Positions 7,601 to 63,800 of a stretch of DNA of 64,000 nucleotides are shown here, piece by piece. The notes below the pieces were generated by a model, which was given only the letters and a program-made list of their open reading frames with translations, did not search any database and had not been told where the DNA came from. The translations under genes were made by a program, and so were the position numbers. The stretch comes from Carcharhinus longimanus (Eukaryota), in the NCBI GenBank assembly GCA_030264375.1, contig JASCQW010000027.1:63321372-63385371 (forward strand), written 5' to 3'. Each line of letters opens with the position of its first letter. The stretch's first letter is position 1.

Positions 7601-10600
7601 AGGGAAAATAGAGGAAAAGCATAGGAAGAATCCAAACTAAAGTCACCTCTGGATCACTGTTATGCTACCTCTTAGCCAACTTTGCAAAGCAGCATTGTTG
7701 GATGTGTGGCTGCAGGTCTACCACCAATCAATCTGATGCATGGCACAGGAGACAAGGGAAGATCAGAAAAATAATTGAAAATGAAGGGAAGTCTTTCATG
7801 CAATTCAGACTATTTTCCACCACTTGTGTTTGTGTTCACAAATGGAAGCAATTTCCATCAGCAGACACATTATCAGAGAAAGTATACAATGCTCACTAAA
7901 TTCTCCCAGGTCCTTCATAGAAAAATTGTGAAAAGTAACTTTGCCGGAACAATGTACATGGTATAAAACTACCTTTTCAAAAGTGTTTATTTTAGTTTTT
8001 TTTGTCTTCTTGCTTCTGTCTAACATGTCAGCACAATATTTACTATCAGTTAGAACTGATGCAAGTCTACATGGAACTAACATACATTTTTCGGGAAGTG
8101 TTTTTTGCAGAGTTGAGATGCAGATCAAGCATGACCTAATTAAATGACAGAAGAATCCTGAGGGGTTGAATGGCTAATTCCTTTTTCGCTGTAAACCCAT
8201 AAGTGAAAAAAAACACTGAAATGTTATGTAAAAATATGCTATATAAAATGCCTACAAAAACTTGTGAGATTAATAATAGGCTCTTGAAGCACTTAAATAT
8301 AATACAAGATAAGTAGATATTAGTAGCAAATATATTGAGTACAGTCCATCTTGAAAGGAATAACTGATTCTTCTTATTTTGCCTGACCTGTTAAGACTTG
8401 GAGAAGATCCTTACATGCAGCCATTTGAGGATTAGCAGAAATGACACTTAATGCCATTGCCACCTCTCTGCACTTTGCCTGGTAGTTTTTTTGAATGGCC
8501 CACTCCACTGCATCTCAAACTGGTCCTCCCTTCTCCAGCTGATATAGGCAAGCAGCATTTTGACCAATTCTTCTGAAAGTGCGGAGGAAATCAGGCCTAC
8601 AGATAAACTTTCATGTAATTTTTCTAATTAGTCATTCTGCTTACCACAAAAGTAAAATTGTTGGTAATGATACCTGATACTTGAAGGTTCAAGTATTAAA
8701 TCTGGAGGACTGTGTCATTTCACATATCTCAATGCCAAGCTTCTGTTTGGAGACAGTTTTACTGATGAGGCATGTCTTTCTTTCTCGAGTTGATTTGACA
8801 TCTATTTGCTTTAGCATCATAAAGGAAAATAATAACTTATGCATCAGTTGGGCGTGTCTTACATATTGTTCTATTTCTACTGAGTCTCTGCATGTAACTG
8901 GAATCACACTTTACAGGCTGGCAAAACACAAGTGATGTAATTGATTGCATCAGTACTGTAATTATACATCTTATTCTCTAATCCTTTAAGAAATCAGATG
9001 TGGTCAAGACAACCACTTTCTCTGGCTGCATGGGAGAAACTTCCTTGGATCGCAAACCTATTGGATTGTGGAATTATAGAGACAGACAGGGAGAATGCAA
9101 AGGCTGTGTTGTGAGGTATGTACTCCTACCTTTCACAGGTAAAGTTTCTAGTCCCAAATATCACTGCATTTCTATTCCTTTTAGAATTGGGATAAAGAAT
9201 TCTGTGATTTTGTGTTCCTGATGAGTTTCTCCAACTAGAAGACAATGGCATAATTGTAATATTGCTGGATCCCACCAGGGCAGTTGGGGAAATTTAAATA
9301 CAATTGTCTCATGAAATCTTGGTAATCTAGAAAGCTTTGGATTGTAACTGAAAACCCAACCAGTACACTGATGTATCTGTTTTCTATGTAACTTCAGACC
9401 CACAGCAGTGGAGTTCACTCTTAACTGCTGCTGTAATGACCTAACAAACCACTCAGTTCAAGGGTAATAAGGATTTGGGCATTAAATGCATGCCTTATCT
9501 GAATGAGAGTATAAAATGCAGGGACCTCTGGATGCTGCTTATTTGCTGGAGTGCAGAGAATGTGGAGCTGGGAATTTGGTGAATGAGAGATTTCAGTGAA
9601 GAGGGAAACTATAAATTAATTAAGAAAAATAAATTTAATGAATAAAATTCTTTATGTTTCCCTCTCTTTAAAGCCCACAACCCACTGACACTGAAGGCAC
9701 TGTACAGTTTGATGGTGAAGGCTATGCAGCTGTGGGTCGACCAACTCGCTGGAATCCAAATGTGTCGGCGATTGTATTCAAATTCAGGACTTTTACATCA
9801 GATGCGCTGCTCATGTACCTTGCCACAAAGGATCTGGTAAATGCAGTGTCAATATTTTGACAGCAAACTATTTTTTCAGTCTCATGCCTGAGCAGAACTC
9901 TGATTAATTTTTTGCCTATTTTTAAATGTTGCTAAATTTTAACAGAGAGATTTCATGAGCGTTGAATTGGCTGATGGACGAATAAAGGTTAGGTATGACC
10001 TTGGCTCAGGTGCAGTTAATGTCACCAGTAGAGGACGCCACAATGATGGGAAATGGAAATCTTTCACATTGTCAAGAATTCTGAAACAAGGTGTGCTTTT
10101 TACAGTAATATTTTCGCTGCACAAAAGTTTTCTGATTAAATTTGATGATTAATCAAATACTTTCTATGTTGGCAGCAAATATTTCCATACGTGATATAAT
10201 AAACAATAAAGAAGAAAGCCTGGTTGTAATTTCCCCAGGAACAAACTTTGGTCTTAATCTGAAAGCGGACGAGAAGATATATTTTGGTGGCTTGCCTATA
10301 TTACAAAATTTAAGGTACATCTTTCTTCAGTAATACATTTTTGATGACAAGTGGTTCATATTCTTGTTTTCTGAAATGGAAAAAAATTGTGCTTTTTTAA
10401 TTTGTGACAAGTATATACATACCCAGTACATAGATAAAAAAATTAGGTCATTCAGCCCTTTGAGCCAGCTCTTCCATTCAATATAATCATAGCTGATCCT
10501 CCATCTCAATGCCATATTCCTATCCCCGTCTACCATGACATATTTAGAGTCTAGAAATCTATCTATTTCCTTTTAAAGTATACTCAGTGATTTAACATTT

Positions 10601-16600: not shown

Positions 16601-19600
16601 TGGAATTTTCCCATCTCGTCTATCATGGGAATCATAGTGGGTGGGACACAGATCATGCAAAGGTCCGTTGACCTTGGGTGGAATTTTCCAACTTTGGGGT
16701 GAGCATGGCTAGAAAACCCTGCCCATTGTGTGTCCTCATGTCACTTTGGTTCTTTTGTCATTCACCTTAAATTGGTGTTCTAGGCTTTCTGCCAGTGGGA
16801 ACTACTTTTCATATCTACTCTGTCTACTCATCATGATTTTAAACACTTCTATCATTTCCTCTTAAGATTCAGCAGGAATTCAATGATTCTAAGGGAATGG
16901 CCCTCATTTCTTCATTCTGTCTGCATAATTGAAATCCATGTTCCTGGTTTGTACTCTAAAACTTTTACATCCTCACAAAAGTATTATCCCCAGAATGGGA
17001 CACAGTCCTCCAATTGAGGTCAAACCAATGTTTTATAAACACTATAACTTCCTTGCTTTTGTACTGTATGCCTCTACGAACTCTCATTAACCACTATCTC
17101 AACTTACCCTGGCATTTTCAATTGTTTGTGCACATATGCCCCAGATCCTTCTGCACCTATCCCCCCTCCTCTATTTTATGTTGTTTCCCCTCATTCTTCC
17201 CACCAAAATGCTTTACTTTACACAGGGAAGATAACCATAAGCTTGGTCAAAGAAGTGGGTTTTAAGAAGGACAGGGAGGCAGAGAAGTTCAGGAGGGTTT
17301 TTGAGAGCTTCAAGCCAAGCAGCTGAAGGCATGACCACTGGTGGTGAAGTACCTTCTGCTCCTCCTGGCCCATAAGGAAACCCAATAATATATCTTTACA
17401 CTTGCCTTGTTGGACCTCTTGTGACAAACACTCTGGTTTTGCCAAGGGGAAAGCCATCACTGCTGTCCCATACAATGTTTTAAGTAAAATTACAGATTGG
17501 GTCCTAATGGCTTCATCAGACACCATTGTTTTTTTTGAGATGACCCATGTGCCTTTCTTATAGGTGTCCCTCTCGCTTGCTCAAAAGAATAGGTTAAGAT
17601 CAAGACATGGCAGAATGGTATTGGAATTAGAGAGGTTAATTGGCTTAACCCAATGGTAACTGATATCTGATTGGTTTCTATTTGGTGGAAGTGTTCAAAA
17701 TGGTGCCTGTGGTTCATCAGGGAAGCTGTGAGACATTATATAGTCTTCTGCAGCAGAACATAGACTCTGAAGGAGCAATTCTTGAAGTGATTCTATCAAG
17801 GTGTCAGCTACTTTGAATTTTCCTGCCTCTCAGCTCTTCCAAACAACAGCAGGAGATATCTTTCAGATCTCTCAGCTGAATCATGCAGATAACAGATGCA
17901 TTGTTTTCCCGGACCAGTGATTTAATTAACTTCTTATGGAAACCGGCCAACTAAGAAAGCAGATCTGTACTTTTACCATCTGCTTTCCACCATCACCAGC
18001 TCTCTCAACAAAAAACAGATTATCAATGGCACACATAGACCCCTCACTCACTATGGAACAGAAAAGGGTTCCAATTACTTAATATACTGCTGTGACCTTA
18101 GATACAAAATCACAAGTTAATGTCCACCACCCTGGTTGTTGTCAGGATTCTTTTTTGCAGCAGAAATGCATGGAGTCATCATTCTTCAAAGGGTAGGAAG
18201 AACTGATTTTATTCTTCTGTGGGATTTGAGCATCACTGGCAAGGCAAGCATTTGTTGCCCAATAAATTGCCCTTAAGAAGATGATGGTAAGCTGCCACCA
18301 TTAACTGCTGTAGTCCACCTGGTGTAGGGTCACCTACACTACTGTTGTGGAGGGAGTTCCAGGATTTTGGCACAGTGACAATGAAGGAACGTTAATATAA
18401 TTCCAAGTCAGGGTGATGGAATGGCTGTTTGGATATCAAGACTGAGTTTATGATCCCTTTGAAACATTCTTGCAGAAGACAAAATAAGTATATAGTGAAG
18501 CACATGCAACCACTCAGGTTGTGATTGAGCAAACTATCATGATGTTAAAGTAAACTATCTGATGTCTTGACTGTTTATAGCAGAGCCTGTCTAAGGTATC
18601 TAAAATTATTGTAAACTGCTGTCTCTTATGCCACTTCTTCTCATAAAGGGATTTTTCTATAGAGCAGGTTGAAGAAGAGAGCTAGCTTCAACTAAGAGAA
18701 CAATGAACAGGAACAAGAAGCAATGTCCCCAGAAGGAAATTACATAAAATGTACAGTGCAAAACAAGCCATTCAGCCCTATTATTCCATTTGTAGGCTGT
18801 TGATCCACAGGACCCCACCCCTCCAACCCCTTTCTATTTAACCCTATCAGCAAAGCCTTTTATTCATTTTTCCTTCATGTATTTATAGACTTAAATAAGT
18901 TTACGCTATTTGCTTCAACTGCTCCTTATGGGATTAAGTTCCACATTTTCACCCACCTTTGGATAAAGAAGTTTCTCTTGAACTCCCTATTAGATTTATT
19001 AGTAACCATACCATATTGACTCACCAAGAGATTTAAGTCAGCATTTAATGGAAACATGCGTGTATCATCCATGGCACAATGATCACCTGCATGTGTGCCC
19101 AATATCTTATTAAAACACAGAATTCCTGCAAAATATTCAAACTTACATCAAGATTACGAATAACTGTTCAGTTTTCCATAAGAATTATAATCACTCCATC
19201 CTAAAGGAATCTCACGACATATTACTACAGCTGTTATATCATAATTCATTCATCATAACAATGAATCTCCTATTTATAACCAAGCGCTCCTTCTAAATGT
19301 TTCCATAGTGGGTTAAAGAAGTAAGGAGAAATATTTTTGTCAGTTTAATGATATATTAATATCTCTTTTATCACCAATGTTTTTATTTTATTTCTTGAAC
19401 ATTATTTCAGTAAAGTGTCTACTATTTTAGAAAAAGCGCTGACAAACTTAAATTGAATTTTGTTTATATATATTACAGGCCTGAAGTCAATTTAAAGAAA
19501 TATAGTGGCTGTCTCAGAGATATAGAAATTTCACAGTCGCCATATAATTTGTTGAGTGGTGCAGATTATCTGGGATTAACAAAAGGCTGCATATTGGAGG

Positions 19601-31600: not shown

Positions 31601-34600
31601 CCCAGAACATTTCTGTCTCCTCTCTGCTTCAGGTATATGTCTAATCCTCTTAAAATCTATAATGATCTCCATCTTAGCTTCTTCATATGGCAAGGCATTC
31701 CAGTGCTTCAATCTTCAACCCTCTGTAAAGAAATTTCTCCCAACCCCTCTCCTTGCCCTCTTCATGACCGTTTTAAATTGATTTGCCTACCATCTACCAC
31801 CAACAGCAGAGAAAATTTCCCTTTGCTTTCAAATCAGTCAGTTCTTCAAGGAAATTCTAATAAGTTAGTCAAACATGCCACTACTGGTATCCTTATTGAT
31901 CTACACATTTATAAATGCAGTGGGACTGCATTTTATAGGAAGGGTAATGTGCTAAACCCCAGAATGAAAGTTGGCCAACATTCGACATGTCAGAAAGAAT
32001 CCATCCCGCACCAATAACACACTGGGAGGGGGCTAAGTCAGCTGAGAATGGGAGGAAGCCCCATCCTCCAAAGCTACTGGCCAATCTGATTGGGCTGGTA
32101 GTGTCAGACTTCAGTAATGAACCTCGCTGGGATTGCAGATAGAAACATGAAGGAAGAGGATGGCTGTTGCAGAAAGGTAGATTCCGGGCATTTACACTGG
32201 CCAGGGATCCAAGAGTCCAGGGGAGAGTGGGGGATGGGAGTGGTTCATAGGGCAGGCAGTGAATAAGGAAGTGGGGTGGGGCGGTGGTGAGGAGGACATC
32301 TTGGGAAGGGGAAGTGCATCTGATGCACTGAGGGCAGCTGCTAAATGTGATGCCTCCCTTCTGTCTTGTCATTTTTAAAAATCTAGGCCATTAAAAAATA
32401 GTCTGTGCATTCCTGTCCTACTGCTAACCGTATTATAGTGTGGGCAGCATATTATTCTAGTAAACAGGCTTGCCGACCAGCCTAATTGACCTTTAATTAT
32501 TCATTTAGATATGGCAGGTGGGCTGCTGACTTCTGGAGCCTTTGACTTACAGTAGCACAGTGGTTGGCACTGCTGCCTGTCAGCGCCAGTGACCCGGGAA
32601 AATTCGCAGCTTGTCTGTGCGGACTCTGCATGTTTTCCCAGTGTCTGTGTGGGTTTCCTCCGAGTGCTCAGGTTTCTTCTCACAGTCTGAAAGATGTGCT
32701 GGTTAGGTGCATTCGCCATGCTAAATACTCCCTCAGTGTACCCAAACAGGCGCCAGAGTGTGGCAACTCGGGGATTTTCACAGCAACTTCATTGCAGTGT
32801 TAATCTAAGCCTACTTGTGACACTAATAAATTAATTTTAACTTTAAACTCTAAAAAAAATTTTGGAATACGGTCGGGATTGACAAGAAGCACTGGACTAG
32901 CCAACTGACATACTTCACGTGCCCACCTGCTGAACAAGGTTTGCCCACAATGAACATTAGACTAACTGGTCCATACTTGCCATGTATCTCGAGCAAAAGT
33001 GTGGATTTGCCTACTTTTTAATCTCAAAGCATAATATTCATTCATAAGGAGAATTAAAAAGTTGCATCTAAATCTGTTTTATTTCCTTGCTTCATTTTAA
33101 AGCCTATGGACTTTTACTTTGCCCATATTTTTATGACACAGAGTTCACCCAGTTCCAACCCAACAGTATAATTATGATCTTATTTATGTCATAGGATACC
33201 AATTTCGACACCAAAAGAGATCTAGTGCTTGAAACAGGCAGGAGCTTTGCATGCATGGCATTGGCTCCTCCTAAAATAGCACTAGCTGCTTCATCAGAAT
33301 TAATGAGGCAGGGAGGCAATTGGCTTCATTTTGAGGACATTACAGCCCATGCAACACCAGGCCAAGGTGATCAAAATTGACCCCAGTTTGATGCAGTTAA
33401 ACTGAACTCAAACCTTTTCAATACTATTCCAGCCTGGTTTAAAAAATGAGTTAGCTATGAAGACTTTGAAAGTTAGCTGTCTCAACTTAGTGATTGCATT
33501 TATACTCGCATTAATCTGTTGTTCGCTCATGTTTTAAACACAGGTAGTCTACAGTATAGATGCTTGCATCCGTAACTTTAAGTTGAACAACAAAACTTTT
33601 GATCTGGATGAACCAACTTCTAGCCTTGACGTTGGAGTCTGTTTCCTTAACAGTCAAAGTGGAAATTATTTTGATGGAACAGGATTTGCTAAAGCAGGTA
33701 AAAAGTATTTGATTACTTTGGCAATGAAATTCTTTGCAGCTTCTTTATTATTATCAGCCAAATTTTAGTTAACCACCATCTTAAAACACAGTTCCTGCAA
33801 GAAAATAGCACCGTGCCACTTAAAATTACTGGATATACTTTGATATGGGTTTTGGCCCATACATAAGACAAACTCCAAAGTTTCTGGAGGCTTTCATTTC
33901 TAGACTTATGAATGAGTGTATTCAGTAAAATAAGTCTGTAATCAGGCAAATTATTTTTAAACAGTAAAACGTAAATATATTTTTGCCAGCTAAGCATTTT
34001 AGGTAGTTGAAAGCATTGGGAAAATAATTGATATAAACCTATGTAAATTTGTGAGATAACTCGTTTTTATTTAAAAGATGGATATAAAAGATTTTATTTG
34101 TAAGTGGGTAGATGAGAACTCAATGTGGTTGGGAATTGTGATTGAATAGAAAATGAGGCCTTACTCTAGATGATCAAACATTGCCAAAACTTTGCTGCTT
34201 AAAGCTCCTCAATTCCTCCAGACTTGTCATCCATCAGTAGGAGCCGGAAAACCTTCAACAACAAAAAGAACTAGCATTTTTATAGCACCTTTCATGGCCA
34301 CTGACATCCCAAGGCATTTTGTTAATTACAGAAATTTTGACGGGCAATCATTGTTCTAATAACGGAACAACAGCAACAGATTTGCATGCAGCAAGGTCCT
34401 ACAAATAACAACGAGCCAATGACCAAATAGTCTGTATTAATCATGATTGTTGAGGGATCAATATTGGCAAGAGCACCGACGTTTGTCAAAGGCTAATAAA
34501 CACATAGCTGAAATTAGCTCAGTGAAATACAGTCAGAAGGGAAGGCGGTGGTGTAGTGGTATTGTTGNNNNNNNNNNNNNNNNNNNNNNNNNNNNNNNNN

Positions 34601-37600: not shown

Positions 37601-40600
37601 AGCCTGCACCCTGTCCTTGGGTAAACTAAAGTTCCTAAGTAGGGCCACTTAAAGGCCTTTTACCCCTACCACTAGTATTTTATGCAGTGAAGATGCCCAA
37701 GCCACAGGGCAATGTGAGGTTGCTCAATAAACCCTAGTGATCTGGTAATAGACTAAGGAGCAGGCACTCTGGTGAGCATCCTGTGCCAATGGCAGCACCC
37801 CACCCTAATGGAAAGGCACACTCCTGATTGTTTCCCCACCTTCCACTGGTAAGTCTCCCAATCATAGCCCCTGCACCACAATCACCACACAACCCCATCC
37901 CCCATGTATTTCTATTACTGAAGTGCTTCAAATCATCCGATCGTGGAGTAACTCTTAAAAGTGGGACATCTTCCCATGTACTGGTGGAAGTCACAGCCTC
38001 AAGCCATGAATTGTCTGAGGGCTATAACATACGGCTGTAGCTTCCTCACCTCTGACTTTCCAACTAGTGAGTGGGGCCATCAACTCCACAGAAAACTCTA
38101 GCCTGAAAGAGATTTGGGATCAAACTTTGAGGTAGCAGTAAAGAACCCCATAATTCCAGTATCACCCTGATGTTCTTTTCTGGTCCTTCCCTAATGCACA
38201 GATGTTCTTTTGATGTAGCCCAAACTTTTCCCTTGTGGCCTCACTGATGCCCAAAGTTAAGAATAACTGATTTTGGTTTGGCTCAAGTGTCTTTTAAATA
38301 AATGCAAATTTATAGTTAGCTCTGTGTACAATCTACTGCTTGAGGCTTATTCCATTACAGCAATTAATATTTGTCCACAGTGCACATATTAGTTTGATGA
38401 TTGCTCCATGCGAACTGACAACATGCTGAGCCTCTTACTGCTCTATGTTCTCTTGTATCATTTCAGTTGCACGTTATAGGGTTGGAACAGATTTACGAAT
38501 CGAGTTTGATTTCCGTACTTCTCAAAGAGATGCTGTGTTGCTGGGGATCAGCAGTCAGAGTGTGGATGGACTGGGCATTGAATTAGTCAATGGAAAAGTA
38601 AGTTCTAACTACAATAGAAAATGCTTTGATTGATTGTACGATGAGGAGGATTATATTGATGCATTACATGACCTGTTGGAACACAATGGGAAATGTTTAA
38701 TTATTGCAACAAAAGTGCTCAAAATATCTTTTTTAAATGATGATGTCAGTGACTTTCGAAAAGATCTCATGGAATTTTCTACCCAAAAAATATTAAGTGT
38801 CATAATGTCAAGAATACCAGAACGATACATACCATTATGTCAGACACGCTCTGGACTGCAATCAGCCCATACTCAGTCACTTTTTGGGAGAGTAGTGACT
38901 TATGCACCAGAACTGAGGGGGCCTAAACATGCCAGTGAGCCTGGCTGCAGAGCGCATGGATGCCATTTCACAAGGGGGCCTGAATCTCTCCAGTGCATTG
39001 GGAGACATCCCCCGCCCCCACCACTGACATCAGAAATCCTCCTCATTGGTGGCNNNNNNNNNNNNNNNNNNNNNNNNNNNNNNNNNNNNNNNNNNNNNNN
39101 NNNNNNNNNNNNNNNNNNNNNNNNNNNNNNNNNNNNNNNNNNNNNNNNNNNNNNNNNNNNNNNNNNNNNNNNNNNNNNNNNNNNNNNNNNNNNNNNNNNN
39201 NNNNNNNNNNNNNNNNNNNNNNNNNNNNNNNNNNNNNNNNNNNNNCCCATTTAGGCCCCTCCTCCACTCAGGTCCCACCTCCTTGGCACTGCCCTGGCTC
39301 ACTGGCAGTGCCCAACTGGTTTGCACCATTAGAAAGGGATTAGGATGATTGCAAACTGTTTGGTGCCAGATGCAAAGTTGATTTTTAGATCCACACGCTA
39401 TATTCTGGGAATCAGTGTGATCTGCACCAGGAACGGCGAAGGCCAGAAATTTGTTCCCTCCCCCATCAATGTTTTGCTGATACTTTATCTTTTCATTTTA
39501 CAATGCAGATATATGTTTACGTTGACAATGGAGCTGGTATATTTTCAGCTGTCTATGACCCTCCACACTTCAATGGGTTGTGTCAAAGACATTGGCACAG
39601 TGTTGTGGTCAATAAAATTAAATACCGTTTGGAGCTGATAGTTGATGGAGAGAAGGTAGAAAGCAGAAGCGCAAGTGTAACCTCCACTGCAACTGACACC
39701 AATGATCCTATCTTTGTTGGAGGATATCCAGGTATGCACCAACTGACTGCATCGTGGATATGTAACACAGAAGTGATTAAGAAATGTGGACATCACTTCC
39801 AATGAGTAAAACCAATGTTAGGACTGATAGCAGGGTGTAGTTTTTCACTCAGAAGGTCATCAATGCATGAAGAAATCTCCTTGATAGAGCAATGAAGGCA
39901 AAACTCAGGGATCATTTTGGCAATTATTGAATACTGCACTGGAGTCTGGATGAGTGGACTGAAAAGCCTTTTTCATTTAGAATTATCTTCCGATTTAAAA
40001 AGGTCTTAGATTAATACACATTGTTTTGTTTAAAATTAAAGTTTAAAAGAGAAATATAAGTATAATAACAATCTGAGGAAGGTGATGGAATTGTGGTAAT
40101 GTCACTGGACCAGTGATCCAGATGCCCAGGCTAAAGCTCAGGGAGTACGGGTTCAATTCATAAATCTGGAATTAAAAAGCTAGTCTCAGTAACAATGACC
40201 ATGAAATCTTTGTTGATTGAAACCCATCCGGTTCACAAATATCTTTCAGGAAAGGAAATCTGCCCTCTTTACCTAGTCTGGCCTACATGTGACTCCTGCA
40301 ATGTAGTTGACTCATAAATGCCCTCTGAAACAACCCAGCAAACTATCCAGTTGTATCGGACTGCTACAAAGTCTACTAAGGAGAATTAAAACAAATGTGT
40401 CACCCAGCATCGACCCGGGAACTGAAAAAAACAATGGCCAACCCAGCCTTGCCGACCCTGCAAAGTCCTTCATAGTAACATCTGGGGGTTTGAAGTCTTA
40501 CAGCACCAGTTCAAAAATGGGCAAGGAAACTTCCTGCTGGTTATCATCCTCAGCTGATGAATCAATACTCCTCCATATTTAACACAAGTTGGAGGAAGCA

Positions 40601-42354
40601 CCAAGAGTGACTGGGGCACAGAATGTATTCTGGGTAGGGGACTTCAATGTCCGTCAGTAAGAGTGACTTAGCACCACTACTGATTGAGCTGACATAGCTG
40701 CTAGACTGAGTCCGAGGCAAGTGGTGTGGGAGCCAAAATGAGGGAAAAATCTACTTGATCCTATCCTCACCGATCTACTTTTTGCAGGTGTCCAGTGCAG
40801 TATTAGTAGGAGTGACCACTGTGCAGTCCTTTTGGCCTCAAAGTCCCATATTTATATTGAAAATACCCTCAATTGTGCTGTGTGGCGTTAGCATGGAATC
40901 TCTACAGTGCAAAAGGATAGGATAGTGAATCTTCCTCTTATACATAACTACAGGATGCATAATTGTTGTATGGTTTTAAGTAGCACTGCCAAAACGGGCT
41001 ACCTCATACGAAAGGCATTGCATTGTGGTGTATTGATTACTTGAGCAAATCAAGGTCCAGATTTTGCAATCAATGACAAAGCATGGGCACTCACCACTGA
41101 AGAAAACTGCAGCATGTGATCTAGCGAGCCCTATGTTGAGATTTTTTACCCCTCTTAATATGCAATTGATTGTAGCCTTGTTTAATGGGGAATCCCAGCA
41201 TCATGCTGCAGTAAATTCACCAACTAATCACATTAACATATTCTTACAGACAAAAAAAATAGAAAGCACTAATAATCAAGTTATCTTTCCAGGGAGCAGA
41301 ATAGATGTTGGGATTTACATATTGGGTTAATATAGAAACTGAAATACCATGAACCAGCTTTCATTATTTAAAACAGCTGATTTAAAAATCTGGTAGTTAA
41401 TTATGACAGAGACTTTTAGTAACATTCCACAAATCTAAAATTAAAAACCAAGTTACACCTCGTTGGACAAAGCTTTACATTTTATATTGTTTCCAACAGT
41501 AACATGAAAGCAGCCAAAATGAAGTTCTGATTGGATCAATTAATTTTGCCGATTGTCATCTCCGAGGGGGTCACAAGCACAGCAGTGACAGTAATGAATA
41601 ACAGACTGCAACCTCTATTTCTGCATTAGGCTGATCTTGTGCTAAATCCTGATGTTTCTGAAAGATTTAGAAAGGCAATGGTGGTGAATGCTGGCAGTTA
41701 GCCATCAAAGACCCACAAATCAAGCGCCCATATGTTTGCTTTGACTGAGTCAAGAAATTCCAGTGAATCTGGACAAACTTCACTGAAGTTAATGGCACAT
41801 TATATTAGGGATATCTGCATAATACGTCACAATTAGTGGTGAATGGCAGTGCTATAAACAGAGAGGCAAATTGATCAGTCATTCAAACATTTGTGATAAT
41901 ATAGATTCCCTTCAGTGTTGTACTGCCTAACATAAATAAAATAGAAAACAAGACAAATAAGAGCATAATAACAAGAATACACTTTCCCTGGCTTGCCTAT
42001 TGATCTGTTGAAATATTAACTTCCCTGCTCTCTCTACAGATTTTGACTAACCTTCATCCAGCACTTTACACATATTGTCCTTGTTCATTGTCAGATTTCT
42101 AGCAAGTGCAATTCATTTTTTTTGCCTTAATCATGACAAGTTGTCTTTTGCAGTGACTTCCCTGCATACATACCAAGTAACATGTTTTTAAATCAATTTC
42201 AGATGACATGAAACAGTTGGCATTGACCATTAATACTCCTTTCAAGGGTTGCATACGTAATCTGAAACTGACAAAAGGAACACAGACTCTAGAAGTTGAC
42301 TTCAGCAAAGCAGTCGAGCTACAAGGAGTTCAACCTCTTACCTGTCCTGCATAA
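1497..42354 (+). CDS. LAMA2: Laminin subunit alpha-2, 3' part (end of LG1 to LG5), 19 coding exons, 5'-partial
   Basis: Manually spliced exons have GT-AG ends and compatible phases, giving 2781 nt open to TAA. Peptides match recalled vertebrate LAMA2 (FLWDVGSGVGRVEYPDL, RRKRRQTGQ, ARINHADFAT, GVQP.TCPA). Most exon lengths equal recalled human exons 47-65. Confidence 0.97.
1877..3771. mobile_element. LTR-like segment (begins TGTAACA) interrupted by a CR1 insertion
   Basis: TGT start and noncoding composition similar to 35268-36297. Boundaries and TSD not confirmed. Confidence 0.3.
2753..3605 (-). mobile_element. CR1 LINE 3' fragment (ORF2 C-terminus plus tail)
   Basis: Minus strand encodes a decayed RPHLEY motif (3262-3280); tail repeat cacagaatcataga at the left end. 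Confidence 0.85.
4631..4711. repeat. 38-bp tandem duplication (about 2.1 copies)
   Basis: GCTTG recurs at 4631, 4669 and 4707; shared unit GCTTG..ATTTCC.TTGACAACTTGA.A.TTCCAA. Confidence 0.8.
5432..5567. mobile_element. PIF/Harbinger-type MITE
   Basis: TIRs GGGTGGGATTTTCC / GGAAAATTCCCCCC; flanks TCT / ACT. Confidence 0.7.
5740..6340 (+). mobile_element. Old CR1 LINE 3' fragment with a MITE inserted in its tail
   Basis: ERVQRRF.R and LNRLELFS-like remnants; tail ATGGCCGAAATG..CCTTCTGTGC. Confidence 0.75.
6241..6324. mobile_element. 84-bp PIF/Harbinger-type MITE with 3-bp TSD (TCT)
   Basis: TIRs GGCTGGGATTTTAC / GTAAAATTCTGGCC; TCT on both flanks. Confidence 0.75.
6636..6795 (+). CDS. LAMA2: LAMA2 exon (LG1; ~exon 48), 160 nt
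   Basis: aaaag|G...GTGAGG|gtatgg; FRRNGTISVRALDGPRASIMPATYSAVSPEGYTILDVDENAYLFVGGLTGEVR. An alternative in-frame AG lies 6 nt downstream. Confidence 0.93.
6975..7450 (-). mobile_element. Deu-domain SINE interrupted by a + strand CR1 tail (~7080-7157)
   Basis: AAGGGATAAATGTTAGTCAGGA..GGGGAAAACTC is the reverse complement of the Deu core; SINE tail at 6975-7010. Confidence 0.7.
8991..9115 (+). CDS. LAMA2: LAMA2 exon (end of LG1; ~exon 49), 125 nt
   Basis: tttaag|AAA...GTGAG|gtatgt; KSDVVKTTTFSGCMGETSLDRKPIGLWNYRDRQGECKGCVVS. Confidence 0.96.
9235..9510 (+). mobile_element. Old copy of the tRNA-headed SINE (family of 63457-63800)
   Basis: Shares CAGACCCACAGCA..G..ACTCTTAACTG...CCACTCAGTTCAAGGG.AAT with the other copies. 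Confidence 0.7.
9674..9836 (+). CDS. LAMA2: LAMA2 exon (start of LG2; ~exon 50), 163 nt
   Basis: taaag|C...GATCTG|gtaaat; PQPTDTEGTVQFDGEGYAAVGRPTRWNPNVSAIVFKFRTFTSDALLMYLATKDL. Confidence 0.96.
9946..10090 (+). CDS. LAMA2: LAMA2 exon (LG2; ~exon 51), 145 nt
   Basis: aacag|AGA...CAAG|gtgtgc; RDFMSVELADGRIKVRYDLGSGAVNVTSRGRHNDGKWKSFTLSRILKQ. Confidence 0.96.
10176..10314 (+). CDS. LAMA2: LAMA2 exon (LG2; ~exon 52), 139 nt
   Basis: ggcag|CA...TTAAG|gtacat; ANISIRDIINNKEESLVVISPGTNFGLNLKADEKIYFGGLPILQNL. Confidence 0.96.
11432..11541 (+). mobile_element. 3' part of a probable LTR nested in CR1
   Basis: AATAAA, then a CpG-retaining U5-like segment ending GTTAACA. The 5' part is lost in the N gap. 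Confidence 0.4.
12331..12642 (+). mobile_element. V-SINE (HE1-like head and body, non-CR1 tail)
   Basis: tRNA-like A/B boxes (GGTTCGAATCC), V-domain GGAGTTTGCATATTCTCC..GTGTCTGC, tail GTAACTTCATTGCAG...TGTGACACT. Confidence 0.85.
13050..14410. mobile_element. GC-rich non-autonomous Harbinger-like element with nested HE1 SINE
   Basis: Shares GTGCCAAGGTGCC..GGGCA and GAGCATTGC/CATGTGCA-type blocks with 27748-28450 and 38770-39465. Boundaries approximate. Confidence 0.55.
13966..14216 (+). mobile_element. HE1 SINE (5'-truncated) with CR1/HER1 tail
   Basis: V-domain, GGCCACGCTAAATTGCCCCTTAGTGTC, tail CCAAATGGCCTCCTTCTGTACTGTA. Confidence 0.9.
14865..15105. mobile_element. Penelope-like palindromic terminal-repeat element
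   Basis: Inverted arms AAAATGTTGGAAACACTCAGC / GCTGAATGTTCCCAGAACTTT around a degenerate CTGATAA core. Confidence 0.65.
15658..15845. mobile_element. Penelope-like palindromic element with hammerhead-like core
   Basis: GCAAAATAGCACAGATGCTGGAAATCTGAAA ... CTGATGAAAGGTCACAGATCTGAAAAGTTAACTC ... TTTTCAGCATCTTCAGTTTATGTTTCAG. Confidence 0.7.
15926..15937 (+). CDS. LAMA2: LAMA2 12-nt microexon (S-M-K-A-R; ~exon 53)
   Basis: Long pyrimidine tract, then tccag|TATGAAGGCCAG|gtaagg. Phase 2-2; restores the LSMKARPEV peptide recalled for human LAMA2. Confidence 0.9.
16598..16724. mobile_element. PIF/Harbinger-type MITE
   Basis: TGGAATTTTCC ... AGAAAACCCTGCCC; internal GTTGACCTTGGGTGGAATTTT matches the reverse of 47584-47707. 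Confidence 0.65.
16730..17215 (-). mobile_element. Old CR1 fragment
   Basis: Decayed CR1 ORF2 C-terminal sequence on the minus strand (CCCCAGAATGGGACACAGTCCTCCAATTGAGGTC). Confidence 0.6.
18205..18425 (-). mobile_element. LINE 3' end whose tail matches the tRNA-headed SINE
   Basis: Minus strand reads SFIVTVPKSWNSLHNSSVGDPTPGGLQQLMVAAYHHLLKGN, overlapping the tail AAGGGCAAT..TGGGCAACAAATGCTTGCCTTGCCAGTGATGCTCAAATCCCA. Confidence 0.75.
18430..18730 (+). pseudogene. PIF/Harbinger transposase remnant (C-terminal DDE region)
   Basis: YSEAHATTQVVIEQTIMMLK...CLD...KVSKIIVNCC then an acidic tail; contains stops and frameshifts. Confidence 0.75.
19479..19599 (+). CDS. LAMA2: LAMA2 exon (end of LG2; ~exon 54), 121 nt
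   Basis: tacag|G...TTGGAG|gtttga; PEVNLKKYSGCLRDIEISQSPYNLLSGADYLGLTKGCILE. Confidence 0.96.
19751..19927 (+). CDS. LAMA2: LAMA2 exon (LG3 with RRKRR furin site; ~exon 55), 177 nt
   Basis: gatag|AAT...GGACAG|gtgttg; NVYTVSFHKPGFVELQPHSLNIGTEISFSFSTKNETGMILYGSGKASAQIRRKRRQTGQ. Confidence 0.96.
20337..20485 (+). CDS. LAMA2: LAMA2 exon (LG3; ~exon 56), 149 nt
   Basis: aacag|GTA...AAAGG|gtatga; VYYAVFLNRGRLEVHISTGMREHRRVTIKPESGVYNDGKEHSVRLQRSKG. Confidence 0.96.
20808..21045. repeat. Degenerate ~31-bp minisatellite, about 8 units
   Basis: Recurring CCCAGCTGAC.ACTATGT.CCCCA.TGCTGT. Confidence 0.8.
21280..21456 (+). CDS. LAMA2: LAMA2 exon (LG3; ~exon 57), 177 nt
   Basis: gtcag|G...TCAGT|gtaagt; LLIVQVNEERAQRQRLPSDLPLNIKRLFVGGVPVSFQVSQLRSITHFEGCIWNLVINSV. 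Confidence 0.96.
22186..22323. mobile_element. PIF/Harbinger-type MITE
   Basis: TIR-like ends GGGTGGATTTTCC / GGGGAATCCGACCC. Confidence 0.55.
22761..22920 (+). CDS. LAMA2: LAMA2 exon (end of LG3 plus hinge; ~exon 58), 160 nt
   Basis: tttag|A...GCTCCA|gtaagt; PLDFAQPVSFEHADIGRCPTLKHSKRPPDEETETAEITVKPITELKIIPTPAP. Confidence 0.94.
24012..24235 (-). mobile_element. tRNA-derived SINE (separate family)
   Basis: Minus-strand head GGGTCAGTTTACCTCAGTTGGCTGG...GGTTCAATTCCCGTACCAGC (A/B boxes); tail GGGACTACGATAGCGACTTTATCTTTAT. Confidence 0.75.
24714..24773 (+). CDS. LAMA2: Candidate additional/alternative 60-nt LAMA2 hinge exon
   Basis: Branch-point-like GCTAAC at 24679-24684, pyrimidine tract, then ttag|GAT...CTG|gtatct. 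Phase 0-0 and stop-free: DVHLSELRNSKLATDHGPIL. No homology support available. Confidence 0.5.
26281..26370. repeat. AT-rich degenerate tandem repeat
   Basis: Recurring ATATACTAATGTAA units. Confidence 0.8.
27124..27236 (+). CDS. LAMA2: LAMA2 exon (start of LG4; ~exon 59), 113 nt
   Basis: ggtag|AAT...ACTAG|gtaaca; NACAVDLPPVTLLKAKRFGLSKNSHVAMEFDDTKVKTR. Confidence 0.95.
27748..28450. mobile_element. GC-rich non-autonomous Harbinger-like element
   Basis: Starts GGCTGATATTCTCCCAAAAA; shares internal blocks with 13050-14410 and 38770-39465. Confidence 0.55.
28956..29145 (+). CDS. LAMA2: LAMA2 exon (LG4; ~exon 60), 190 nt
   Basis: tacag|G...CATAAG|gtaata; LIIEFEIQTKAESGLVFYMARINHADFATIQIKDGMAHFSYDLGSGNASTVVQKKINDGEWHK. 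Confidence 0.96.
30335..30605 (+). mobile_element. Deu-domain SINE
   Basis: GCACTATTTCAAAG..GGAGTTCTCCTGG...CCTCAACCAACAC...CATTGCTGTTTGTG...TTTGGGATGTCCTGAG. Confidence 0.75.
30660..30955 (+). mobile_element. CR1 3' fragment
   Basis: GAGGAAAACATTTTTGCCCAGAGGGTGGTG...GGCTGAATGGCCTAATTCT tail. Confidence 0.7.
30987..31142 (+). CDS. LAMA2: LAMA2 exon (LG4; ~exon 61), 156 nt
   Basis: tgtag|GTC...GGCCGT|gtaagt; VRIVRERKRVTVTIGLNVATTVSPKTADILDVVGMIYIGGLPKNYTTRRIGR. Confidence 0.96.
32550..32850 (+). mobile_element. V-SINE (same tail subfamily as 12331-12642)
   Basis: CAGTAGCACAGTGGTTGGCACTGCTGCC head, V-domain, tail CAACTTCATTGCAGTGTTAATCTAAGCCTACTTGTGACACTAATAAA. Confidence 0.85.
33544..33697 (+). 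CDS. LAMA2: LAMA2 exon (LG4/LG5; ~exon 62), 154 nt
   Basis: cacag|GTA...GCAG|gtaaaa; VVYSIDACIRNFKLNNKTFDLDEPTSSLDVGVCFLNSQSGNYFDGTGFAKA. Confidence 0.96.
34262..34480 (-). mobile_element. Deu-domain SINE, 3' half
   Basis: GCATTTTTATAGCACCTTTCA...CATCCCAAGGC...GCAAGGTCCTACAAA...GTTGAGGGATCAATATTGGC. Confidence 0.75.
35268..36297. mobile_element. Solo-LTR-like element
   Basis: Termini TGTGAGAAGG...CCTTACA, flanks TCAA/TAAA (imperfect 4-bp TSD), about 1 kb, noncoding. Confidence 0.4.
36750..37425 (-). mobile_element. Rex1/Babar-like LINE 3' fragment
   Basis: Minus-strand ORFs: VESFKFLGIQIT.NLSWSLHTDATVKKAQQCLYFLRKLREF; FYRCTIESILSGFITSCYG; LKNSFFPAAIRLLN. Confidence 0.85.
38467..38597 (+). 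CDS. LAMA2: LAMA2 exon (LG5; ~exon 63), 131 nt
   Basis: ttcag|TT...GGAAAA|gtaagt; VARYRVGTDLRIEFDFRTSQRDAVLLGISSQSVDGLGIELVNGK. Confidence 0.96.
38770..39465. mobile_element. GC-rich non-autonomous Harbinger-like element (gap inside)
   Basis: TGGAATTTTCTACCCAAAAAA start; ends near GGCCAGAAATTTGTTCCC; similar to 27748-28450. Confidence 0.55.
39509..39731 (+). CDS. LAMA2: LAMA2 exon (LG5; ~exon 64), 223 nt
   Basis: tgcag|ATA...CCAG|gtatgc; IYVYVDNGAGIFSAVYDPPHFNGLCQRHWHSVVVNKIKYRLELIVDGEKVESRSASVTSTATDTNDPIFVGGYP. Confidence 0.96.
40075..40890 (+). mobile_element. LINE 5' fragment: tRNA-like head and SINE body fused to an APE endonuclease remnant
   Basis: 40075-40352 matches the SINE at 63457. 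It is followed by CKVLHSNIWG (40459), AQNVFWVGDFNV (GDFNV 40637-40651), GKNLLDPILTDL (40742) and SDH (40811). Confidence 0.8.
42203..42354 (+). CDS. LAMA2: LAMA2 terminal coding exon (end of LG5; ~exon 65)
   Basis: ttcag|AT; DMKQLALTINTPFKGCIRNLKLTKGTQTLEVDFSKAVELQGVQPLTCPA*, TAA at 42352-42354. Confidence 0.96.
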
Positions 42355-47209: not shown

Positions 47210-47465
47210 AGAACATAAGAACATAAGAAATAGGAGCAGGAGTAGGCCATCTGGCCCTTCGAGCCTGCCCCACCATTCAATAAGNNNNNNNNNNNNNNNN
47301 NNNNNNNNNNNNNNNNNNNNNNNNNNNNNNNNNNNNNNNNNNNNNNNNNNNNNNNNNNNNNNNNNNNNNNNNNNNNNNNNNNNNCTTTGAGTGAAGAAGT
47401 TCCTCCTCAACTCCGTTCTAAAACGCCCCCCCTTTATCTTGAGGCTGTGCCCCCTAGTCCTCTTG
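47210..47465 (-). mobile_element. Young CR1 3' end (gap inside)
   Basis: (AGAACATA)n tail; minus strand RTRGHSLKIKGGRFRTELRRNFFTQ. Confidence 0.9.
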
Positions 47466-48897: not shown

Positions 48898-51800
48898 CAT
48901 TGTCTGGTCTCCATNNNNNNNNNNNNNNNNNNNNNNNNNNNNNNNNNNNNNNNNNNNNNNNNNNNNNNNNNNNNNNNNNNNNNNNNNNNNNNNNNNNNNN
49001 NNNNNNNNNNNNNNATTCAGAAGTTCCATATAAGCCTCAGCATTGGTGTCTTTGGTCTGAAATCTTCATCCAATATCCACCACGCTTCATGTTCCTACAA
49101 CCTGGTTCTGAGCTCAAGATGTTGGCCCTCTTCACAACTGGTTACATTTTAACACAAGTATAAACATAATACATATTAAAAAGAAACAAAATGGAGCCAG
49201 CATCTCAGAAAGATACAACATACCAAAATGCCTTACACAACATGCTGTAATTCTCTATGTTCTCAGTGACACTGGATGCCGGGGACCTAGTCACATGCAG
49301 TCCCATTCTGCTGAAAGCCATCTTCCCTTTACGGCTCAGGAGATGCAGATATCCTACTCTCCTTCCAGACTCTATTTTGCTCCATTTTACTGTGGTGATC
49401 TAGTCTGACAAGAGGGCAGAATGTCAGTAATTATGTTGCACTGTGTTTGGGTGATGAGCATGTCACAGCTGAATAGTTGCAGGACTGTGGGGGCAGCAAG
49501 AGGTGAGTGTGTGAGGTTGGTGCCTTTGAATGGTGTGTGAGGGTGAGGTGGGGAATTTGGATGTCAGGTGTGAGTCCTGATGATGAGGGAATGCTTCAGG
49601 TTAAATGATAGGAATGTAGTACATTTAACAATCACACAGAAGTCTTGTGGAGAGTAGGAGATGTCACATGATCAATACACTCACTGATGTTGACCACATA
49701 TATGAGGTCAGTGGCCTCATGTGACACAGTTAGATCCTCGGATCCAAACTCCAGGAGTTGATCTTCTGGCCAATTGTTCTCATTTCCTTCTTGAGGGTCT
49801 CTGTCTCTACAGAATCACACAATTGTTACAGCATAGAAAGAGACCATTAAGTCCATCATGCCTGTTGTTATGCCAGTTTTGCTTTTAATATCTTAAGTGA
49901 GGAGACTCTTGAGGGAATAAAGTGCATTAAGCAATTTAAGACCAGTGCGTATTTCGGTACATATCAGTTGACCGGTCTGACCTTATATTGTTCTCTTGCT
50001 CAGTGAAACTGCTTCCTTTTTGGAGACCAGTGATAATGATTCACGTGCCATTGAAGGTACAGTGAAGTATGTGGTTTAGTCAGTGTAGTGAAACATGTTC
50101 CTTGACAATGAAATGATCCATGTGCCTTTGGCATTTTACTGATCTATATTTCATTGGTGGTTTGATGATTAAAAGAGAGAAAGAAAGATTTATTGTAAAT
50201 TGCTTTGAGATGTGCAGTTATCATGAAAAGCGCTATCTAAATACAAATCCTTTTTTAATCATTCCACCGTGAATGACATGTGGATCATTACATTGTCAAT
50301 GGTAACTGGTTGTGTAATGAATCACATGCCTGTGGCAATTTAATGTTAAATGTGTCATTAACAGTGAAATGAAGCATACAAATGTTTACATTTAGAAACA
50401 TATAAAACATGCTGAAATTTGATGCAAATTTGAGTAGATAAATGTAAGGGGCTCACAGTAAAATCTTCTTGTATTCTTGAGGAGAGCACTGCTTTTCAAG
50501 GTGGACAACTCCTGTTTACATGTCAAGCTGGCAATTACTACTTTGCAGCTGAACTCTGACACCCAGGCTGGATTTCCAGTCTGTGGTCAGAAACACGAAT
50601 ATTCAGAATATTTCCGAATCCTGACTCCATGTTCCATCAGCGCTAGTGCTGCAACTCAATTTCAAAAGGTGAGGAGCCTACTTGACCCGGGAGTGAGTTC
50701 AGCACCTGATTAGCTGTGGCCTGGAGGTGGGACCCAGTAACCAAGGCCCTTTTGAAAAGATGAACAGCAAACATAACTGGGCTTGCAGAGGACCAGCATT
50801 GGCAAGGCAGGCATCCACAGGCAGTTTCTCAGCTGCCTCCCTGAGGCATGAGCCGTTGCTGAGAGGTGAGAAATAATGTTCATGGCCTCCAGCTGAGCAA
50901 ATTCATCCAGAGACACCAAAAGGTGCTAATAGTGGTCAGCTGTAGAGGAGTGACCAGGGTAACTGGTATCTGTATCAGGAAAGATCTGATAAGGTCTGGA
51001 AAGCTGAGTGGAAAGTGACCCTCATGAGTGACTATCCATGTTGCAAGGCCCTATGACAAATGCAGGTGCAACAGCCTGTGGATGACCATTCACAGGTACC
51101 CCTAGGCAGCTCACTTGGAGGCAAAGACAATGGAGTAGACTGCCTCAGCCACATGCCTCAGCACACCATCCTAGTGGATGTGAACACAAAGTGCAATGCC
51201 ATTAGTTGTACTTTTTGGGTTACCTGGGCAAAGTTGTCTCAATTTGTTTGGTCATTTATGCCACCTTTAATAATCATTGGTGATCATCTTGTCAGATTTT
51301 TGTGTCAGTACTACTTGATGTCAACACTAAAATACAAGTTGTTGTGCAGAGGAGGAAGGTGTGATCTGAGTCTGTGGTTACATGGCCTGTGATGCGGGAA
51401 AATGTTGGCAGGTGGAGACTCCATTCTTAGGTTTATGGATAGCAATGAGATTCTTCAAATTGTGTTTGTTGGACAATTTCTCTCTCTGATGGAAGTTGAG
51501 TTTGAGTCATCTGTCATAGAGCAGAGGCACCAAAATGAAATATTGATTGATTAATGTGGTTCTTATAGCTATGCCAACTTGCTGATGACCATGAGGCTTG
51601 GGGCTGGGCTCCTCTGGGTTATCCCTTCATCCTCCTGTTCCTCTATTTAGATCTCATCCCCATCCTTCTCACTGATGCTCTAGATCCTCTTCTTTAACCA
51701 TCTCTGGGGAAATGGTGGTGTAACAGTAATGTTACCAGACTACTAATTTAGGAGCCCAGGACAACTGGGTTCAATTCCCACCATAGCATGTGCTGATGCT

Positions 51801-60934: not shown

Positions 60935-61267
60935 ATAAGGACAAATGTAAAATTGTGAAATATCAAACAAACATTACTAATAGTAATTAAGACAAAATGT
61001 TTCAGCAACCTGTTTCTTTTCAGAAATATTCAAATTCTGTGCTACCAAGCGACTGTTTATTATCATGATATCAAAAGAGATGCAAGGAAAAAGATTTCCT
61101 TTGTTTACTAATAGAAAAATCAAGTATAAAGAATAAGATTAGGGTTTTACTGTAGTAGATAGGGAATTGTTCTCCCTTATGTAGACACAGACTGCAATTC
61201 TGAGTGTTTAATGATGTTATAAACTGGAAATGCAAAATCTGATAGGGGAGATGGTGACACAATGGTA

Positions 61268-61580
61268 TTATCATAGAATCCCTACAATGCAGAAGGAGGC
61301 CATTTGGCCCATTGAGTCTGTACTGACAACAATCCCACTCAGGCCCTATCCCCCTAACCCTACTAATCCCCCTGACTCTAAGGGGCAATTTAGCATGGCC
61401 TATCAACCTAACCCGCACACCTCTGGACTGTGGGAGGAAACTGGAGCATCCAGAGGAAAGCCATACAGACACGGAGAGAACGTGTAAACTTCATACACAA
61501 TCACCCAAAGTTGGAATTGAACCCAGGTCCCTGACACTGTAAGGTGGCAGTGCTAACCACTGCATCACTGCATCACTGCC
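61268..61580 (-). mobile_element. HE1 SINE, full length
   Basis: Minus strand: tRNA-like head (GTGGTTAGCACTGCC...GGGTTCAATTCC), V-domain, CR1 tail ending GGGATTCTATGAT. Confidence 0.9.
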
Positions 61581-61586: not shown

Positions 61587-61868
61587 ACTGGACTAGTAAT
61601 CCAGAGACCTAATGCAAGGTCTGGGGACCCATGTTTCCACCATGGCAGATGGTGGAATTAAAGGTCTAATGATGACCATGAAATGATTGTTCTAAAAACC
61701 CATCTGGCTCACTAGTGTTCTTTAGAAAAGGAAATCTGTCATCCTTACCTTGTCTGGCCTATGTGTGATTCCAGAGCCACAGTAATGTGGTTGACTCTCA
61801 AATGTCCTCTTAAATGGAGGGTAGTTGATACCGGGCAATAAATGCTGGCCCAACCATCAACACAAAAA
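61587..61868 (+). mobile_element. tRNA-headed SINE (5'-truncated)
   Basis: GGACTAGTAATCCAGAGACC...AAGGAAATCTG...GGGCAATAAATGCTGGCC; aligns with 63457-63800. Confidence 0.85.
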
Positions 61869-63456
61869 AATTAATATTAATATCCGGTGACTAAATACTC
61901 AGTTGGATGTATCGTTATTGTATTATACAATACTTTATTCTAATATGTGCAGTGCATTTATTCGGATGATGCATTATTATTGTCTTTTGGGTTGTTGAAA
62001 CTGAAAGGGAACAATGCTATGAGACAAAATACTGTAGGTTTGTTTGAGTCAGTGATAATTACATTATACCCTATAGAAATATTTTCCACATACAAGCCTT
62101 CCTTACTAAAACAAAATTAAATGACAACTGCAATATCATTGCAACAAATAGATCATATATATCTTTATTTACAGAACTAGAAAATGTAACTGTACAGTTT
62201 AAAAACTGAAAATTTATTAAAACAGTATAGATATTTGTATATAAAACAAACATTTTATTTTGAATACATTCAACAAAAGAAAAATCTTAAACAATTTGAT
62301 AATTTGTTTGTTTTTAAAAATCACATAAACCCTCGTAAAAGCAGTACCATTGAATCAGTTTGATGGAAACTCTTTAAAGCATGCTGTTTTTTGGAACAAA
62401 TATTGTAGAATATTTACTAAATTCTACATGGCATTGGTATTGCAGCACAGGGAGACCATTTCGACAAATCAGTTGAGTTACTTCATTTTTATTTAATCTG
62501 CCTCCCTTTTCTATTATTCTGAAACTTCTATCTCATTTAATTTTGCTGCAACTTTTAATTAAAATGTTTAAGCTTTAGGTTGCATGGAAATAAGTTGCGA
62601 TATTATTGTTTGCAATACGAACACGGCATCTTGATGTAAAATTTTGTTGCTATTTTAATGGACATTAACCTGGTTATTTATGTGTGTTAATGCTGCTGAA
62701 TGAAAAAGTGCTAAAAGTACAAAGCCATATTAGCTGCCTGCTGGCTTACTAAAATCAAGGGCAGAAGCAAGCCATTCAACCCAACAAGTTCAGGTTAAGA
62801 GCTATGCTCTACTTGTGCATAAAGTTAAGTCTTGCATATCCATCGCTTTGTGGAATTATGGTGCTGCAGTCTAAAGCCCAGTTCAGCAAGTGCCTTTAGC
62901 CTCCATCTTATGGAACATGCATGATAATGGGCCTAATCCAAAGTCCGAAGCATTTCAAAATATCTGAAGAAAAATCATATGGATTCAAAAAATGAACTGT
63001 TTCTCGCTCTACAGATGCTACCAGACCTGCTGGGTTCCTCTATATGAGAGAATTTGTTTTACCTAATTGCTCTGAATTTATCTGTGATACAACTTGTAAA
63101 GTATTTTCAAGCTTGTTCTTAGAACGTGATGTTAATTTGTTTTCTGGTGATATGCTACATGATCGACTGACAGTTTTACTATGAAGCAATGTTCCCTCTA
63201 ATTTGTCTATCCATGTGCATAATGAATTTTGAATTATGTGCCAACATTTAGGTACAGTACAGATGTGCACCACCAGTACAAACAAAAGACCTATATATAT
63301 TTTCAACAAGTTACCTTAGGTATGGTTGAAGAAGGAAGAATCACCTGCAGCCACTAGATCAGCAATATGCTAGACCACAAATCACCTGATTTACTAAGTT
63401 TAGTTTTAAATTTACTGTTGTGGCATTTCAACCATGTCATCTAAGTTTTATGTTCA

Positions 63457-63800
63457 GGGGAGGTAGTGGTGTAGCGGTATTGTCACTGGACTAGTAATCC
63501 AGAGATCCAGAGTAATGCTTTGGGGATGTAAGTTCAAATTCCACTATGGCAGAGGGCGAAATTTGAAATTAATAAAGATCTGGAATTAAAAGTCTAATGA
63601 TGATCACAAAACCATTGTCGATTGTTGTAAAAATCCATCTGATTCACTAATGTCCTTTAGGGAAGAAAATCTTACCTGGTCTGGCCTATCAGACCACAGT
63701 AAATATGGTTGACTCTTAAAATGTCCCCTCAAGGGCAATGAGAAATGGGCAATAAATGCTGGCACAGCCAGCAACACCCACATCCTTTTGAATGAATTGA
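63457..63800 (+). mobile_element. tRNA-headed SINE, full length
   Basis: A box TGGTGTAGCGG (63467), B box GTTCAAATTCC (63532), body, tail CAAGGGCAAT..ATGGGCAATAAATGCTGGC..GCCAGCAACACCCACATCC..TGAATGAA. Confidence 0.85.

Follow-up and report, generated by a model that had tools for sequence, protein, structure and literature searches.

By a working division, LINEs use RNA polymerase II and SINEs use RNA polymerase III, and a SINE is assembled by the addition of a small-RNA head to a piece of a LINE (PMC10886601, PMC5786205). A bipartite architecture is known from Bov-A, Bov-tA and RIME, which belong to the derivatives of RTE, Ingi, Vingi and R2 elements and, like the SINE described here, consist of the 5' part of a LINE joined to its 3' end (PMC5786205). 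However, the deletion products of these four clades lack a small-RNA head, which is added afterwards, whereas in the system analysed in this work the head already resides on the autonomous LINE. As sources of bipartite elements without an ORF, the part of the same article that was covered names RTE, Ingi, Vingi and R2 and no others; Zenon, the annotation of the parent LINE in our case (PMC13343379), is absent from the list. LINEs with a tRNA-like or SINE-like sequence, comparable to the one reported here, do have a precedent in RTE-1_DAn and related elements and in Ingi-3_AC, which limits any claim to novelty for a headed LINE; however, these elements belong to other clades and hosts, and the source mentions them in passing, with no position or role for the tRNA-like piece in the part available (PMC5786205).

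Among the cartilaginous fishes, tRNA-headed SINEs are known as the Deu-SINEs SacSINE1 and LmeSINE1 (PMC5499810, PMC3747384, PMC4824008). By their description they are set apart from the SINE studied here, as they measure 463 bp, carry an L2-derived tail and are present in chimaera and coelacanth, whereas ours measures about 340 bp and has a Zenon-type poly(A) tail. The elasmobranch Zenon LINEs have been reported as a family of sharks and rays (PMC13343379), and they share with the copy analysed here the head, the body, the linker, the start of the endonuclease at NIWG and the lack of ORF1. The main text of that report contains no match for "tRNA", "promoter", "polymerase" or "non-autonomous" and a single one for "SINE", which stands in the reference list; it describes neither the head nor the SINE derivatives. 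Neither a shark LINE with a tRNA head nor the SINE in question is described in the literature searched, which covers few subscription papers; Repbase or Dfam may contain these elements. A head on a coding LINE across sharks and rays would provide a one-step route to the birth of a SINE, and would add the Zenon clade of the CR1 group to the sources of ORF-less bipartite elements. It also bears on annotation, since the library used will decide whether this 5' sequence is classed as SINE or as LINE.

The headed LINE copy at 40 kb

The window, i.e. the whole 64,000-nucleotide stretch of Carcharhinus longimanus DNA that we analysed, is animal DNA with assembly gaps; its relevant features are collected in Table 1. 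The segment 40075-40890 is a dead, 3'-truncated copy of an elasmobranch Zenon LINE. The Zenon LINE is a single-ORF element of the CR1 group, and we base the assignment of the copy on its sequence identity to the elasmobranch consensuses over head, body and linker (within the first 400 bases of the consensus rows) and on the APE endonuclease, which opens the single ORF with no ORF1 before it. Because an exon coding for a laminin G domain lies at 39512-39731, the copy is intronic; a further likely exon is located at about 42200-42350. Contigs from four runs of four organisms bridge 40269-40577 with 0-6 differences each, therefore the locus is real and predates the split of those organisms, and the head-to-APE junction is not an assembly artefact at this locus. 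The nearest named protein matches to the endonuclease are gene models of whale shark and horn shark. No target-site duplication is evident by eye around the copy, and a profile search detected no further piece of Zenon downstream; the copy contains no RT.

Table 1. Features of the window discussed in the text
Position	Strand	Feature	Basis or remark
9235..9510	+	older SINE copy with the longest 5' part (to CAGTT), head partly deleted	
18205..18425	-	5'-truncated Zenon-type LINE 3' end: ORF C-terminus (RSFI, WNSL, HHLLKGN), 3' UTR, A-rich end	
40076..40165	+	tRNA-like head of the LINE copy, with a short deletion after the B box	same head opens 7 of 7 elasmobranch Zenon consensuses
40166..40352	+	body (5' UTR) common to the SINE copies	SINEs depart at about 40322, 40333 and 40352
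40351..40476	+	"linker": decayed basic N-terminal extension of the ORF	in frame with NIWG
40477..40893	+	APE endonuclease remnant in two frames with several stops, cut off at about 40893	motifs and profile match
40893..40920	-	antisense 3'-tail piece of another retroposon family (that at 61275-61585)	aligns with 61263-61297
51703..51795	+	further copy of the head alone	nhmmer E 9.5e-10
61244..61274	+	head start (5') belonging to the 61587 SINE copy, detached from it when an antisense element inserted later	
61587..61870	+	SINE copy with the intermediate 5' part	first 30 bases at 61244-61274
63457..63800	+	SINE copy with the shortest 5' part	head and body meet the LINE tail at 63727/63728

According to the initial annotation, about 280 bp of head and body are shared with the SINE copies at 63457, 61587 and 9235, and local alignment of 40060-40470 against each of them (300 shuffles) bears this out: 182 of 243 matched columns are equal for 63457 (z 31), 163 of 215 for 61587 (z 38) and 113 of 155 for 9235 (z 8.7). 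The first two copies align with 40077-40330 and the third reaches 40352; blastn recovered the first two and missed the third. In the LINE copy a B box is found at 40150-40159 and a degenerate A box at 40086-40096; a short stretch just 3' of the B box has been lost. ARAGORN with default settings makes no tRNA call in the whole window, and with relaxed settings it makes 33, mostly noise; at gathering scores Rfam likewise has no match in the window. The better preserved head of the 63457 copy gives a full-length, albeit weak, match to the Rfam tRNA model (13.8 bits, E 8.9, below the gathering score) and its fold, in which the anticodon and T arms are accompanied by a long variable arm, is no better than those of its shuffles (z -0.8); none of the RNA folds computed for the heads and tails surpasses shuffled sequences. 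Another copy of the head begins at 34538-34567 and runs into a 265-base assembly gap.

The APE motifs follow one another on the forward strand: NIWG at 40477-40488, GDFNV at 40637-40651, LDPI at 40754-40765 and SDH at 40811-40819. In the initial annotation the body was described as running within about 110 bp into the endonuclease. All four motifs are indeed present and NIWG begins 125 bp beyond the last base in common with the longest SINE copy, near the estimated distance, but the presumed spacer is coding sequence and forms the N-terminal part of the ORF; its counterpart in the relatives is a basic N-terminal extension, and about 88 of 120 bases equal those of the great white CarCar_Zenon-1 row by a hand count. 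It was also correctly observed that no ORF1 lies between head and APE, but this is not the result of head capture: it is a trait of the clade, since all Zenon elements lack ORF1 according to PMC13343379. Pfam alone gives a non-significant match for the endonuclease (E 0.24), while a profile built from 16 intact relatives matches 40547-40891 at E 8e-13. Profile positions 9 and 114 are just 70 bp apart, so that about 245 bp are gone between NIWG and the RPPS region.

Beyond 40893 the Zenon remainder is absent, and past 40924 the read depth drops to the single-copy level; the loss may be due to a deletion made during the insertion of the antisense retroposon. The Zenon copies at 61244-61587 and 40883-40920 are each broken by the antisense 3' end of one and the same other retroposon family, and both insertions sit at similar target sequences (TGG..TTA.CA, then the tail).

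A word-index protein search with the APE of the LINE copy returned no match, and a search with an alignment of three APE sequences returned four weak CR1-like matches; the C-termini of two of these were compared with the tail found in the window and did not match it. Among the seven phmmer matches, P0003, P0004 and P0006 are false and driven by repeats, and save where noted they do not enter the counts. None of the searches yielded a protein that could be recognised as an intact shark Zenon.

Head, body and linker in the Zenon clade

The supplement of PMC13343379 contains 10 Zenon consensuses, of which we compared the first 400 bases of each row by eye. All seven elasmobranch rows (CarCar, RhiTyp, ScyCan and HypSab Zenon-1, and SquAca Zenon-1 to -3, i.e. 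five species, with consensus lengths of 2.9-3.3 kb) open with head, body and linker, and none of the other three (two hagfish, one coelacanth) does so. Among the first 400 bases of about 1,000 consensus rows, a 21-base motif of the body from the window occurs exactly in three rows, all of them Zenon, and three motifs of the window occur exactly in Zenon rows only. A motif of the body was not found in viral, metagenome or prokaryote contigs, in the texts of papers or in the supplements on bivalve SINEs. Where the table of PMC13343379 is legible, the long copies of the elasmobranch families number between 59 and 2,313, and the intact ORFs between 0 and 3. The consensus rows thus answer the question whether the head-to-APE junction is unique to the locus: it is not, and they show that in sharks and rays head and body are fused to the ORF start throughout the family and that the remaining Zenon elements examined lack them. 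The structure is thus real and extends across a LINE family that was named recently. We regard the headed architecture as well supported, and the connection with the tail and the derivation by deletion, discussed below, as likely.

The claim that a LINE acquired a tRNA-derived head is likewise upheld by the outgroups, as the head is absent from the first 400 bases of the hagfish and coelacanth rows and from 78 metagenomic relatives, in which the best nhmmer match has an E of 6.8. A strict B box upstream of the ORF was found in none of 16 chosen long relatives, whose 161-750 upstream bases may fall short of the 5' ends. In view of these results, and within the reach of the outgroups, the head was likely gained in the elasmobranch lineage. 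Rfam at gathering scores had no match in the 14 of the 78 loci searched, and a tRNA-Ser call made upstream of L028 by relaxed ARAGORN was rejected, as Rfam does not support it. L001, the closest non-shark relative, has at 540-750 a 5' region of its own. Translated in another frame, this region is similar to the N-terminus predicted for P0018, and it may represent a 5' UTR element conserved among these relatives.

One might suppose that the 40-kb junction is the chance juxtaposition of a SINE and an unrelated fragment of a LINE, limited to this locus. The copy is old and rearranged, and no paralogous contig bridges head and linker: paralogous contigs over 40348-40469, with 24 differences, occur in runs X1 and X7, the two listed for the linker end short of the head, and the 40-kb copy lies near the 80% cut-off. 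Read depth over the linker amounts to no more than about 10 times the single-copy level (70-105 in runs X1 and X2). However, the same junction opens seven published consensuses, for each of which between 59 and over 2,000 long copies were used, and this refutes the coincidence unless every one of the seven arose as an extension artefact with an identical join; we regard this explanation as extremely improbable.

The LINE 3' end and the origin of the SINEs

At 18 kb the window contains the other end of a Zenon-type LINE. On the minus strand WNSL is read at 18361-18350 and HHLLKGN at 18286-18266, and the last 65 bp or so of the segment align with the SINE tails (z 10 for 63457, 5.4 for 9235 and 4.9 for 61587, the last of these below the best shuffle). 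The initial reading of this segment as a LINE C-terminus that ends in the SINE tail therefore holds. In four of four runs the commonest sequence before the SINE tail encodes QFKKAAHHHL, the counterpart of QLMVAAYHHL in the window, and in four of four runs the tail family ends in poly(A); the 40-kb copy itself has lost its 3' end. Poly(A) tails are described as common to all Zenon elements and, among the elements of the CR1 group, as unique to them (PMC13343379).

The 40-kb endonuclease and the 18-kb tail probably belong to one LINE, as judged from the behaviour of the two sequences in relatives. Across 124 APE-RT proteins the scores of the window APE and of the window C-terminus are correlated (Spearman 0.41, rising to 0.55 when the shark-like fragment P0008 is included), P0018 and P0019 are within the top four for both, and among 78 loci L001 ranks first for both ends. 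No single sequence joining a 40-kb-type APE to an 18-kb-type tail was obtained, and the tail motifs were not found in the consensus rows, of which the first 400 bases alone were compared.

The SINE of the window is about 280-340 bp long, i.e. shorter than the 700 bp allowed for SINE2, is present in many copies, and shares its 3' tail with the LINE end at 18 kb. Its head can be regarded as tRNA-derived on the basis of the A and B boxes and the tRNA-like arms, the Rfam tRNA match being the weak one of 13.8 bits, and we place it in SINE2. An assignment to SacSINE1 with its Deu domain was considered and dropped, because the tail of SacSINE1 is of the L2 type, whereas that of the window SINE follows a Zenon-like C-terminus and ends in poly(A). 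Per run, 18,701-27,788 contigs match a 301-base stretch, which is not a copy number.

The three SINE copies leave the 5' part of the LINE at different points, at about 40322 (63457), 40333 (61587) and 40352 (9235), and the tail is joined within the last codons of the ORF; joints of all three types are found in single contigs of other runs. Therefore, the view that the SINE is an internal-deletion product must be amended: it does combine the 5' part and the 3' end of the LINE, but as at least three junction variants rather than one product. By eye and at few sites, the 9235 head resembles the dogfish type, the 63457 and 61587 heads resemble the great white type and the 40-kb head is mixed, so that both head variants of the LINE consensuses are present among the SINEs of the window. 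A CTTAACTG/CTTAAATG difference was discarded as a subfamily marker, because it is combined with the other head type in the row of the whale shark.

On this basis we consider it likely that the window SINEs are internal-deletion products, with the head and what is probably the proper 3' end retained, of the elasmobranch Zenon element whose dead copy, with its tRNA-like head and body of about 190 bases, lies at 40 kb. The three different departure points lead us to favour repeated internal deletion from the LINE as the origin of the SINEs, with fair confidence. We propose that the ancestral Zenon gained the head once, before the split of sharks and rays, by switching templates to an RNA of tRNA origin, which would have been either a tRNA or an older SINE. 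The internal A and B boxes would then have become the promoter of the element and would have been kept through the retrotransposition of full-length copies. Deletions during reverse transcription, some at short microhomologies, would have fused the 5' UTR to the last codons and the 3' UTR. Each deletion product would possess both a promoter and a tail recognised by the Zenon enzyme, and thus would be a finished SINE in one step, which would have happened more than once.

The order of events could also have been the opposite, with a tRNA-headed SINE of the 9235 type, equipped with a Zenon tail, preceding the LINE; the shorter SINEs would then be deletions of the long one, and a Zenon LINE would have taken over the 5' part of the SINE by a template switch at CAGTT. 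The longest SINE ends exactly where the reading frame of the LINE starts (40348-40352), so that head and body make a clean module, and the nested breakpoints also fit one long SINE shortened twice. The 5' region of L001, the closest relative outside the sharks, is unrelated (score 26, shuffle mean 23), Zenon elements are known as tail donors of bivalve tRNA SINEs (PMC11481361), and the exchange of modules is well described (PMC5499810, PMC4824008). On the other hand, both head variants occur in the LINE consensuses as well as in the SINE copies (by eye, at few sites), which would require later exchange, and CAGTT is present not only at the 9235 breakpoint but also in the 3' end of the LINE, as a deletion would use. 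Furthermore, no SINE with such a head was found outside elasmobranchs in the collections searched, which are without vertebrate genomes. We therefore consider the SINE-first order and the template switch that it involves unlikely as the origin of the SINEs; nonetheless, the donation of the head by a SINE and the origin of the present SINEs by deletion can be compatible if placed at different times.

Promoter, translation and neighbouring repeats

If the head works as a promoter, a protein-coding element would be made by RNA polymerase III. Tentatively, and with somewhat less than even confidence, we regard this polymerase as the simplest reader of the putative promoter in the elasmobranch Zenon head. 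The A and B boxes are retained at the very 5' end of the Zenon consensuses of sharks and of a ray, and by eye no run of four T occurs in the first 400 bases of the seven elasmobranch rows, unlike those of hagfish and coelacanth, which do have such runs in this interval. Runs of four or more T number 7-31 per ORF in 16 relatives. The 40-kb copy has two in 817 bases and, being decayed, cannot show avoidance of terminators. Polymerase III is disfavoured by the length of Zenon, which reaches 3.3 kb and is long beside the 100-700 bp of SINEs, a range tied to the weak processivity of this polymerase (PMC10886601).

It is quite possible, if short of probable, that a LINE of the structure described above is transcribed by polymerase II, either from a promoter in the head or body or by read-through from the host, in which case the A and B boxes would be of importance to the SINE derivatives alone or would act as an auxiliary signal. 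LINEs are held to be polymerase II transcripts (PMC10886601, PMC5786205), and a capped RNA would solve the problem of translation. Polymerase II leaves unexplained why the boxes are kept at the 5' ends of the LINE consensuses and why the first 400 bases are free of T4 runs. In addition, in the HypSab (stingray) row the APE frame is open for 47 codons before NIW with no AUG (hand reading), which a capped mRNA would not favour; in six of the seven elasmobranch rows an AUG occurs in another frame.

Transcripts of polymerase III have no cap, which also speaks against this polymerase, and a 3.3-kb protein-coding retrotransposon on a tRNA promoter would raise the question of its own translation. R2 elements are translated without a cap or an AUG. 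They offer a loose analogy, as single-ORF LINEs with an RNA that differs from an ordinary polymerase II mRNA, but R2 RNA is an rRNA co-transcript excised by a ribozyme, and R2 uses another endonuclease and belongs to another clade than Zenon (PMC5786205).

Several other repeats were noted in the course of the analysis. A second SINE family, which looks like V-SINE HE1, is present in five copies with 70-83% identity (12347-12650, 13966-14213, 32558-32854, 52281-52564 and 61275-61585); the last of these is younger than the 61587 SINE, as it lies inside the head of that copy. Fragments of a CR1-like LINE of a family other than Zenon are found at 10639-12900 (-), 57889-58143 (+), 3293-3538 (-) and 18890-19009 (-). 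The horn shark gene model P0007 (XP_067908591.1), named "CWC25 homolog", starts with about 120 residues made up of pieces of Zenon APE and RT, which are probably an annotation artefact. Finally, the segments 1-72 and 47210-47281 form an inverted pair, 96% identical and situated beside a gap, which represents either a recent repeat or an assembly duplication.
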